Positions 31,980-36,860 of a DNA stretch of 64,000 nucleotides are shown here, in pieces (within the stretch, counting starts at the first letter, position 1; each line of letters begins with the position of its first letter). Position numbers and translations under genes: made by a program. The notes under the pieces were generated by a model that ran no database searches, was not told the origin of the DNA, and saw only the letters and a list, made by a program, of their open reading frames with translations. The DNA is from a plasmid: NCBI RefSeq assembly GCF_058153355.1, contig NZ_JBLWLY010000002.1; one strand, given 5' to 3'.

Positions 31980-35590
<3,611 letters not shown>

Positions 35591-35716
35591 TGCCGTGCGG
35601 GAAATTCCTCAGTTCCGTTTTCCAGCGGGGAAAATGACGACACTCGTCAGCCCGTTCACCGCCACCAAGCTCCAGTGCCCGTCGAAATGCCTTTATACGT
35701 AATACTCTTTCCTGTC

Positions 35717-36328
35717 TCATTTCTTCACCTTCCCGTCCTGGCGGGCCAGAGCCAGCAGTTCGGTCTGAAGCTGGCGGCCGTCCTCCCGGGCTTCCTTCAG
35801 CTCCGCCTTCGTGTCCTGCAGCTGCGCCGCCAGGTGTTCGCCGGTGGCGGTCAGGCGGGCCACCTGCTCGCGCAGCGGCAGCGCCTCCGTGCGCAGCTCG
35901 CGTACCTCCTGCAGCAGGCGGTCACGTTCGGCCACCACCTCGCGCAGCACCGCCAGCTCGCTTTCCAGCGCGGCCACGTTCGCCAGCGCCTCATCCCGCT
36001 CCTTGTCGGCCCGGGCAATGTCGTCGTCGGCCTGCTCGCGCGCCGCCAGGGCCCCGGCTTCAGCCTGTTTCACGGCCGCCTGCCACAGCAGCCCCAGCTG
36101 GCCGGTCAGCAGCTGCGCCAGCTCCGGCGGCAGGGGCGTGGCCTGCTCAGCGGCCTGCTCGCGCTGGCGGGCGCGGAACGCGCGCATCACCGGGGAGATG
36201 TGGGACAGGGAGCCGCCGCCGAGGTGCTGACGGACCTGCTCGTTGGTCGGGTTCGGGGTGCCGGCGGCGATCAGGGCGGCGGCGGCGTCTTCAATGCGGC
36301 GGACGGTGTCCGGGGAGAGGGATGTCAT
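35717..36328 (-). CDS. KfrA-like DNA-binding coiled-coil protein (about 203 aa) in a GC-rich islet
   Basis: N-terminus MTSLSPDTVRRIEDAAAALIAAGTPNPTNEQVRQHLGGGSLSHISPVMRAF resembles the KfrA N-terminal domain, followed by an Ala/Glu/Leu/Arg-rich coiled coil; start taken at the internal Met. Confidence 0.5.
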   Translation of the reverse strand: MTSLSPDTVRRIEDAAAALIAAGTPNPTNEQVRQHLGGGSLSHISPVMRAFRARQREQAAEQATPLPPELAQLLTGQLGLLWQAAVKQAEAGALAAREQADDDIARADKERDEALANVAALESELAVLREVVAERDRLLQEVRELRTEALPLREQVARLTATGEHLAAQLQDTKAELKEAREDGRQLQTELLALARQDGKVKK

Positions 36329-36860
36329 GGTCTGGCTCCGGTTTCTCAGGGAATGGCGCCATCGTACGCCCGGTATGAAAAATACACAATACAATTCATA
36401 CATACAGTACAGAACTTACATACACTCTTTCTCTTTTCCAGGTCAGATCCGATTTCTGGTGGTCACGGATCCGCGGATCCTTCGCTGCCGTCCGTCGGCC
36501 AGATTTTACAGGATGTTGTGTTCATACCAGCTGACATAACACTGTATGTTGTGTTTATTCCCGTGTTCGCGAGCCAGTCATCAGCGGCAGAAAAGATCAC
36601 TTCGCTTATTCACTGATCGTGATTCACTTCCGGAAATTCCTGAATCCAATAAAAATCGGATCATGGAAAAACAGTTATCCTGTAATTTAGCATGGTTACT
36701 ACATTGCTGGTTATTATTATCACGGTTGCTTTTTATGTTGGTTATTGGTGTGAGTGTTAATAATAGCCTGATAACAATATTCCGTTGCCGGAGGCATGCT
36801 ATAGCGTAATACTGGTGTATACTTAATTGTGTACAGAGAGTATGTAAGATGAGGTGTATT

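Follow-up and report, generated by a model that had tools for sequence, protein, structure and literature searches.

What is the short, strongly GC-rich (guanine plus cytosine) patch that lies between an insertion sequence (IS) of the IS21 family and the ccdAB genes on a plasmid of NCBI RefSeq assembly GCF_058153355.1? The stretch analysed, hereafter the window, comprises 64,000 nucleotides of contig NZ_JBLWLY010000002.1. An earlier note made from its letters had read the patch as part of a foreign plasmid backbone, coding for a KfrA-like coiled-coil DNA-binding protein and imported alongside the RepFIA block. The patch is better explained, with good though not full confidence, as the gene of a short KfrA-type autoregulator that has its own TGTAY operator and an accessory maintenance role, in an operon cut by IS21.

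According to this explanation, the N-terminal helix-turn-helix (HTH) head of the protein would recognise an array of TGTAY words, similar to the repeat TGTATTGTA bound by the KfrA protein of plasmid RA3, over its own -35 box. Since the array overlaps the -35, the protein would repress its own promoter, and its alpha-helical tail of about 135 residues would mediate dimerisation or oligomerisation. By analogy with KfrA of RA3 and R751, it is probably an accessory plasmid-maintenance factor. The gene, called kfrA below, would be the first of a conserved two-gene operon that is divergent from ccdAB-resD in the compared intact E. coli plasmids. In the window, insertion of IS21 has left only 43 codons of this second gene, with kfrA and a shortened operator intact. 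The gene with its domain, fold and distribution, the IS junction, the repeat array and the composition are shown by the data; binding of the protein to the array, autorepression and the maintenance role are deduced.

Extent and composition of the GC-rich patch

The abrupt change of base composition reported by the earlier note is real. In 300-bp segments, GC content rises from about 0.50 to 0.69-0.75 across 35700-36300 and falls to 0.43-0.39 at 36450-36900, the mean across the 64 kb being 0.457 (standard deviation 0.073 for 612-bp segments). A GC content above 0.65 is found nowhere in the 64 kb except in 612-bp segments starting at 35551-35901, with a peak of 0.729 at 35751. The core delimited by cumulative GC runs from 35731 to 36373, about 640 bp and not the 810 bp of the range first given, and coincides with one minus-strand open reading frame (ORF) and its 5' leader. 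This ORF is the kfrA-like coding sequence (35717..36328, minus strand; 203 aa), which was recognised from the list of ORFs, Pfam, AlphaFold2 (AF2), BLASTP, the ratio of nonsynonymous to synonymous divergence (dN/dS) and codon statistics.

Its GC content is 0.727, with 0.82, 0.46 and 0.90 at the first, second and third codon positions (GC1, GC2 and GC3). Adjoining genes have a GC3 of 0.61-0.65, and the codon usage of the neighbours would predict a GC of 0.627 and a GC3 of 0.63 for this ORF, so that its synonymous composition is atypical of its surroundings. About half of the GC excess over the flanks (about 0.52) comes from amino-acid composition and half from synonymous choice; for example, GAG and GAA occur 15 and 7 times, CAG and CAA 17 and 0 times, and A is never the third base of an Ala codon. 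The claim of foreign composition therefore stands for the synonymous sites of the ORF (GC3 0.90 vs 0.63) but does not extend to a piece of backbone: the operator of kfrA is AT-rich, and the overlapping downstream gene has about 52% GC, GC3 in this partner gene being 0.54-0.68.

A long plus-strand ORF of 359 aa (35537-36616) also crosses the patch, running antisense to kfrA with its codons exactly in register. That this ORF is the real product, or that the region is non-coding, has next to no chance of being right. The long frame does exist, but its stops need sense TTA, CTA or TCA codons, and because kfrA contains none of these the open plus-strand frame is a shadow ORF. The minus-strand frame, for its part, has a Pfam match, the order GC3 > GC1 > GC2, dN/dS below 1 and a confidently predicted fold.

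The KfrA-like protein

A KfrA-type N-terminal domain followed by a coiled-coil tail, as first proposed, was confirmed by Pfam and AF2. The KfrA_N profile (PF11740) is matched with 77.1 bits (E 2.2e-21; curated cut-off 26.1 bits), residues 10-125 spanning profile positions 3-113 of 113. The protein contains 18% Ala, 14% Leu, 11% Glu, 10% Arg and 8% Gln, and these five residues abound in its tail. From a 51-sequence alignment, AF2 returned a model with a predicted local distance difference test score (pLDDT) of 95.4 and helices at residues 6-21, 29-36, 41-62 and 68-202. The HTH head occupies approximately residues 1-62, and the tail is modelled as a single helix of about 135 residues (68-202; pLDDT 96-99). 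Among kfrA alleles dN/dS is 0.2-0.5.

Other searches added little. A PDB sequence search and Foldseek retrieved no solved KfrA relative, their weak matches being generic HTH domains. The NCBIfam matches (SMC, Rad50) fell far under the cut-offs and are nothing but coiled-coil noise, as are the LmuB matches in PADLOC; the partner proteins had no PADLOC match. PHROGs matched neither the KfrA-like protein nor its 206-aa partner.

Putative operator and promoter

The array that we infer to be the KfrA operator (36378..36428, minus strand) consists of TGTATGTAA, TGTACTGTA, TGTATGTAT, TGTATGAAT, TGTATTGTG and TGTATTTTT, and the sense strand upstream of kfrA reads GAGTGTATGTAAGTTCTGTACTGTATGTATGAATTGTATTGTGTATTTTTCATACC. 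Six TGTAY words lie within 80 bp upstream of the gene; the runner-up cluster in the 64 kb has two. One-mismatch matches to TGTATTGTA are not enriched over the whole window (17 found vs 16.5 expected), so only their local clustering is meaningful, and 3 of the 17 sit at 36385-36411, all on the sense strand. Arrays of 6-14 TGTAY copies precede all eight IncF-clade homologs, namely that of the window and those of three E. coli plasmids, Klebsiella oxytoca, Salmonella, Klebsiella pneumoniae and Serratia. At the level of sequence, the window gene thus has the repetitive operator over its own promoter that is expected of the family.

The final repeat overlaps the -35 of a putative kfrA promoter (36361..36389, minus strand), with TTGTGT at 36389-36384, a 17-nt spacer and the -10 TACGAT at 36366-36361. 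This assignment is tentative, the boxes being weak by the sigma-70 consensus, and it comes from a geometry shared across loci: in 8/8 IncF-clade loci the last repeat holds TTGTGT, followed after exactly 17 nt by TAnnnT, 30-38 nt before the ATG, and the spacers have diverged. A 5' leader (36329..36360, minus strand), read from the sequence, carries the Shine-Dalgarno motif GGAG 7 nt before the ATG, and this motif is kept in the E. coli and Serratia alleles.

The number of TGTAY copies differs among near-identical plasmids, with 6 in the window, 8 in pO157, 9 in pFT130-2 and 12 in p300709_60, and insertions and deletions in the operator are multiples of about 9-10 bp. The pattern suggests that copy number changes by slipped-strand variation, and copy number could tune repression.

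Comparison with known KfrA systems

Among characterised proteins, the nearest is RA3 KfrA, from an IncU plasmid (45% identity over the first 164 aa, E 7e-32, BLASTP), compared here through a 355-aa copy from the IncU plasmid pTE_T100_5 (L004). An alanine scan of RA3 KfrA found N29, V32, R33, G39, S40, L41, I44, P46, M48, W51 and R52 to be needed for repression (Lewicka et al. 2021, PMC7783346). Ten of these eleven HTH residues are identical, with the same numbering, in the window protein, W51 being replaced by F51. The RA3 operator, OK, consists of five 9-nt repeats TGTATTGTA to which KfrA binds; they lie over the -35 (TTGTAT) and on either side of the -10 in the promoter of its gene, and repression in vivo needs at least two adjacent operator repeats (PMC7783346). 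This layout is visible in the sequence upstream of the IncU homolog. The evidence on RA3 and R751 KfrA comes from electrophoretic mobility shift assays, reporter assays and electron microscopy (PMC7783346, PMC7821693). Those KfrA proteins that have been characterised regulate their own synthesis and show stability phenotypes. In both the RA3 and the window systems, a KfrA_N head and an alpha-helical tail are combined with TGTAT-type repeats over the gene's own -35, and it is by analogy with RA3-type proteins that filament formation may be expected of the window KfrA.

Nevertheless, the two systems differ in several respects. The window protein has 203 aa instead of 355 and is devoid of the four 35-aa tail repeats of RA3 KfrA. 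Its operator has degenerate repeats only upstream of and over the -35, whereas RA3 has three direct and two inverted exact 9-mers flanking the -10. The GC3 of kfrA is 0.90 in the window and 0.69 in the RA3-type copy. The genetic context is IncF ccdAB-resD/RepFIA in the window and klcA-korC-kfrC-kfrA-korA-incC-korB in RA3. The partners are unrelated as well: the predicted Cys-His hydrolase encoded downstream of the IncF gene gave a profile that aligned to RA3 KfrC with an hhalign probability of only 0.9%. The neighbours here are ccdAB, resD and RepFIA instead of korA-incC-korB. The association with KfrB/KfrC and IncC/KorB, absent here, is a trait of the IncP/IncU context, not of the protein family.

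KfrA of the IncP-1 plasmids RK2 and R751 (kfrA-kfrB-kfrC) shares with the window protein the Pfam family, the head-plus-coiled-coil organisation and the place at the head of a small operon; autoregulation, within a plasmid maintenance region, would likewise be expected. The sequence similarity would be remote, and the window protein is much shorter. Homologs of kfrB and kfrC are absent from the window, and no control by KorA, KorB or KorF is evident.

At the other extreme, 'KfrAs' of pO157 (AB011549, BAA31783), the 'DNA-binding protein' WP_000202889 of the Prokaryotic Genome Annotation Pipeline (PGAP) and relatives on IncFIA/FIB plasmids are 97.5-99.5% identical in amino acids and represent essentially the same gene; the form annotated in pO157 is the 228-aa variant that begins at the alternative start 36403. 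The window and the pO157-type loci share the operator and, where intact, the overlapping downstream gene. On the divergent side, pO157 and pFT130-2 carry ccdAB (letAB). In pO157 four amino acids (EQAA) are deleted from the protein, the operator array is longer, and the intergenic stretch between kfrA and ccdA differs past position 36470 or so. The downstream gene of pO157 is intact, that of the window truncated by IS21.

The two-gene operon and its interruption by IS21

In intact E. coli plasmids, the next gene after kfrA codes for 206 aa, and its start codon overlaps the stop codon of kfrA (ATGA); in pFT130-2 and pO157 the pair is divergent from ccdA-ccdB-resD. In the window, 43 codons of this partner gene are left (35591..35720, minus strand), its ATG still overlapping the kfrA stop and the frame cut before the invariant Cys45. 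The rest of the window was searched and does not contain the remainder. Since the stub ends at Gly43, before the predicted catalytic Cys, it can be taken as dead.

Immediately beyond the stub lies a partial IS21 copy (33928..35590, minus strand), recognised by the Pfam domains rve, Mu-transpos_C_2 and IstB_IS21 and named IS21 and IS100 in RefSeq. Pfam and RefSeq thus agree with the earlier placement of kfrA between an IS21-family copy and ccdAB, and 35590, which had been proposed as the junction, proved to be the IS terminus. In the alignments, the sequence shared with uninterrupted plasmids begins at 35591. Three IS21 copies, independent of one another, all terminate in ...GCGCTRACA at the base corresponding to 35590 and diverge beyond it. 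BLAST had extended IS21 to about 35600, but the alignment of independent copies shows that this extension is target-site similarity and not IS sequence. A loose CCGTGC/GCGTG motif directly follows four independent IS21 left ends (window 35591-35600; L011-L013), which hints at a target-site preference.

The IS copy is incomplete and does not have both ends and an intact istB: istA is intact (34317-35489, 390 aa), and istB is truncated (33928-34320, 130 aa) and adjoins IS100-type fragments. The junction between IS21 and the partner gene occurs in no PLSDB record and in none of 5,426 complete E. coli genomes. According to these alignments, IS21 interrupts the operon and did not deliver kfrA.

The partner family itself comprises 140 homologs, all in Enterobacterales, has no name in any source and lacks a Pfam, PADLOC or PHROG assignment. 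Cys45 and His86 are invariant in its alignment, as are L98, T99, L100 and Q102 of a DLTLDQF motif in which Asp97 and Phe103 are near-invariant. In the AF2 model (pLDDT 91) a helix begins at Cys45 and His86 belongs to a strand, and the partner is predicted to be a papain/transglutaminase-like Cys-His-Asp hydrolase. The length of the protein in E. coli, K. oxytoca and Serratia ranges from 167 to 209 aa. The partner position of K. pneumoniae holds another gene, of 354 aa (phrog_22938).

Distribution and the age of the high GC3

The kfrA-like ORF is present in 516 of 72,556 PLSDB plasmids, 395 of them from Escherichia and others from Klebsiella, Salmonella, Citrobacter, Serratia and Enterobacter. 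Records of pO157 make up most of the matches listed at 97.5-97.7% identity, and tblastn in PLSDB adds IncU/Aeromonas relatives at about 42% identity. Because the module is this widely distributed and keeps its position across plasmids, it is a long-standing resident of the IncF maintenance region and not specific to the window.

Diverged kfrA alleles have 69-85% amino-acid identity and a synonymous divergence (dS) of 0.3-0.87, and all clade alleles are GC-rich (GC 0.67-0.74, GC3 0.78-0.90), with flanks of 0.45-0.54. As GC3 is high across the diverged alleles compared within the clade, the GC-richness of kfrA is old and clade-wide in Enterobacterales and not due to recent import.

These data bear directly on the original proposal, taken here to mean that a fragment of a foreign plasmid backbone of higher GC was recently carried in beside RepFIA, possibly with or by the IS21 element, which we regard as very unlikely. 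It would account for the GC3 of 0.90 in kfrA against 0.61-0.65 in its neighbours, for the IS21 terminus adjoining the kfrA module, and for the closest characterised relatives being found on broad-host-range IncU and IncP plasmids. However, the same kfrA-to-ccdA sequence occurs in plasmids that lack the IS. The IS21 copy lies on the left side only, where it interrupts an operon and does not bound an insert. A single ORF is GC-rich, and its operator and overlapping partner are not. Neither position nor GC-richness is lost in the diverged alleles of four genera, and the gene is spread over several genera. Nor did the homology searches for a donor lineage (PLSDB tblastn, a 5.8-billion-protein search, a representative search and a cluster-name look-up) find any relative above 55% identity outside Enterobacterales or any high-GC donor; they returned only Enterobacterales, IncU/Aeromonas, one metagenome-assembled genome of Oceanospirillaceae and metagenome contigs. 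It is possible that the kfrA ORF itself is of ancient foreign origin.

How the high GC3 has lasted is another matter. If complete randomisation, calculated with the codon usage of the clade itself, is set at 100%, synonymous sites are randomised by 40-88% in kfrA, 71-102% in the partner and 82-95% in resD-like genes. An active maintenance of GC3 in kfrA, by GC-biased gene conversion at a conserved gene prone to recombination or by selection on DNA or mRNA, instead of a fading trace of import, is possible but less likely than not. It would fit the persistence of a clade GC3 of 0.78-0.90 despite this randomisation, with the partner (GC3 0.54-0.68) at or near saturation, and the mosaic breakpoints directly beside kfrA (alignment A1, approximately column 1045). 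The lower divergence of kfrA relative to its neighbours is likewise consistent with frequent exchange; it fits either recombinational exchange or synonymous constraint. On the other hand, a short KfrA homolog with 51% identity has a GC3 of only 0.39, so the protein does not force high GC and the family has no general need for it. The GC3 of the Klebsiella and Salmonella alleles (0.78-0.80) is below that of the E. coli and Serratia alleles (0.90), consistent with slow amelioration. These data are compatible with slow amelioration of an ancient import as well as with active maintenance.

The 51%-identical homolog lies on a metagenome contig (L010, 4001-4603), with GC 0.43 in a flank of 0.51. Its skew is opposite to that of the IncF clade.

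A bolder version may also be considered, in which the IncF KfrA and the translationally coupled Cys-His hydrolase form an uncharacterised two-gene module, an RA3-type autoregulated DNA-binding filament protein plus an enzyme, and in which a gene-specific process (biased gene conversion or selection) keeps the GC3 of kfrA at 0.8-0.9 independently of plasmid background. We find this version as a whole doubtful.

Points against the proposed autoregulated maintenance protein

Several observations weigh against the explanation of the locus as an autoregulator with a maintenance role. The HTH motif is near-invariant over the 51 family members, and since it is kept family-wide, residue identity supports DNA binding but does not by itself establish an RA3-like specificity. 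The window holds no exact copy of TGTATTGTA and has the shortest array of the compared loci. A generic scan of 35500-36900 for sigma-70 promoters and terminators found none, thereby missing the proposed promoter, which is weak by consensus. The IncP/IncU partners (KfrB/KfrC and IncC/KorB) are absent and the partner is unrelated to KfrC, so that the maintenance role stands by analogy only. The synonymous divergence of kfrA is below that of neighbour genes. Finally, the literature searched contains no experiment on any IncF-type KfrA and offers only the annotation label 'kfrAs'.

Neighbouring genes and other features

To the right of kfrA lie ccdA (36861-37079, plus strand; Pfam CcdA E 8e-27), ccdB (37081-37386, plus strand; Pfam CcdB E 2e-32), both divergent from it, and a gene for a ResD-like recombinase (37387-38091, plus strand). 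Compared with the 269-aa protein of pFT130-2, this recombinase has a 2-aa deletion and an in-frame 32-aa deletion between two LATL repeats, the latter removing WNTGARINEAL.... In tyrosine recombinases this box contains the first catalytic Arg, and the window protein is probably inactive.

The divergent side varies among plasmids. In p300709_60 an IS3 stands in place of ccdAB, and in K. pneumoniae, Salmonella and Serratia plasmids two small genes of unknown function are found with a gene for a ResD-like tyrosine recombinase. Anti-phage-type genes also stand beside the module elsewhere, including Abi_C/HEPN and DUF2971 in E. coli (L001, 1563-2920), Ppl in K. oxytoca (L005, 1-2672) and AIPR in K. 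pneumoniae (L007, 5375-6591), and the region may be a hot spot for cargo or defence genes.

This variability raises the question of whether the KfrA-like protein is mainly a local transcriptional regulator of variable downstream cargo and not an accessory of partition or positioning, which we consider unlikely. The downstream gene always overlaps the kfrA stop yet differs by lineage (the hydrolase family or the 354-aa phrog_22938 gene), and Abi/HEPN, DUF2971, Ppl and AIPR genes occur within a few kb in several plasmids. However, neither the KfrA-like protein nor its partners have a PADLOC match beyond coiled-coil noise, the KfrA proteins characterised so far combine autoregulation with stability phenotypes, and the nearby defence genes may merely mark a variable plasmid region.

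Cross-locus comparison revealed a conserved inverted repeat, GATCCG-N14-22-CGGATC (36446..36479), which includes the palindrome GGATCCGCGGATCC and lies a short distance upstream of the operator array. In the window it carries three Dam GATC sites (2-3 across loci) and ties for the top GATC density. Of the eight IncF-clade loci seven have it, 117-180 nt upstream of the ATG, and IncU lacks it. The repeat could act as a Dam/SeqA-sensitive site or bind another protein.

A second, 14-nt inverted repeat, AGAG[T/A]GTATGTAAG, is 13/14 complementary between 36415-36428 and 36835-36848 and puts a copy of the distal operator word directly before the ccdA start. Control of ccd by KfrA through this repeat was not adopted, the repeat being absent in pO157; the copy near ccdA may be due to chance.

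On the left side, a nest of IS21-family fragments extends over 32710-35590, with IS100-type istA (33002-33889) and istB (32710-33150), both disrupted. Positions 28000-46000 of the window are mosaic, the best matches being Shigella and enteroinvasive E. coli (EIEC) pINV-type plasmids, with virF and ipaH annotations, and IncFIA backbones. The EIEC pINV plasmid CP119444 carries the same IS21.

Implications

The kfrA gene is already known and annotated (pO157 'KfrAs', PGAP), and the inferences added here go only a little further. They concern an RA3-type operator that varies in copy number, a promoter geometry kept across loci, a hydrolase as partner and the persistence of GC3. The annotation picture is nevertheless corrected, in that the GC-rich patch is no exotic import but a standard gene of the IncF maintenance region, and the real local event is the IS21 insertion that killed the partner gene. 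IncF-type KfrA is carried by hundreds of virulence and resistance plasmids, among them pO157 and those of enterotoxigenic E. coli (ETEC), Klebsiella and Salmonella. For these plasmids, the RA3-like HTH, the TGTAY operator with its copy-number variation, the promoter geometry and the hydrolase partner constitute testable predictions. In addition, an operon of two genes in which just one keeps a very high GC3 provides a small and clean case for amelioration versus biased gene conversion on plasmids.

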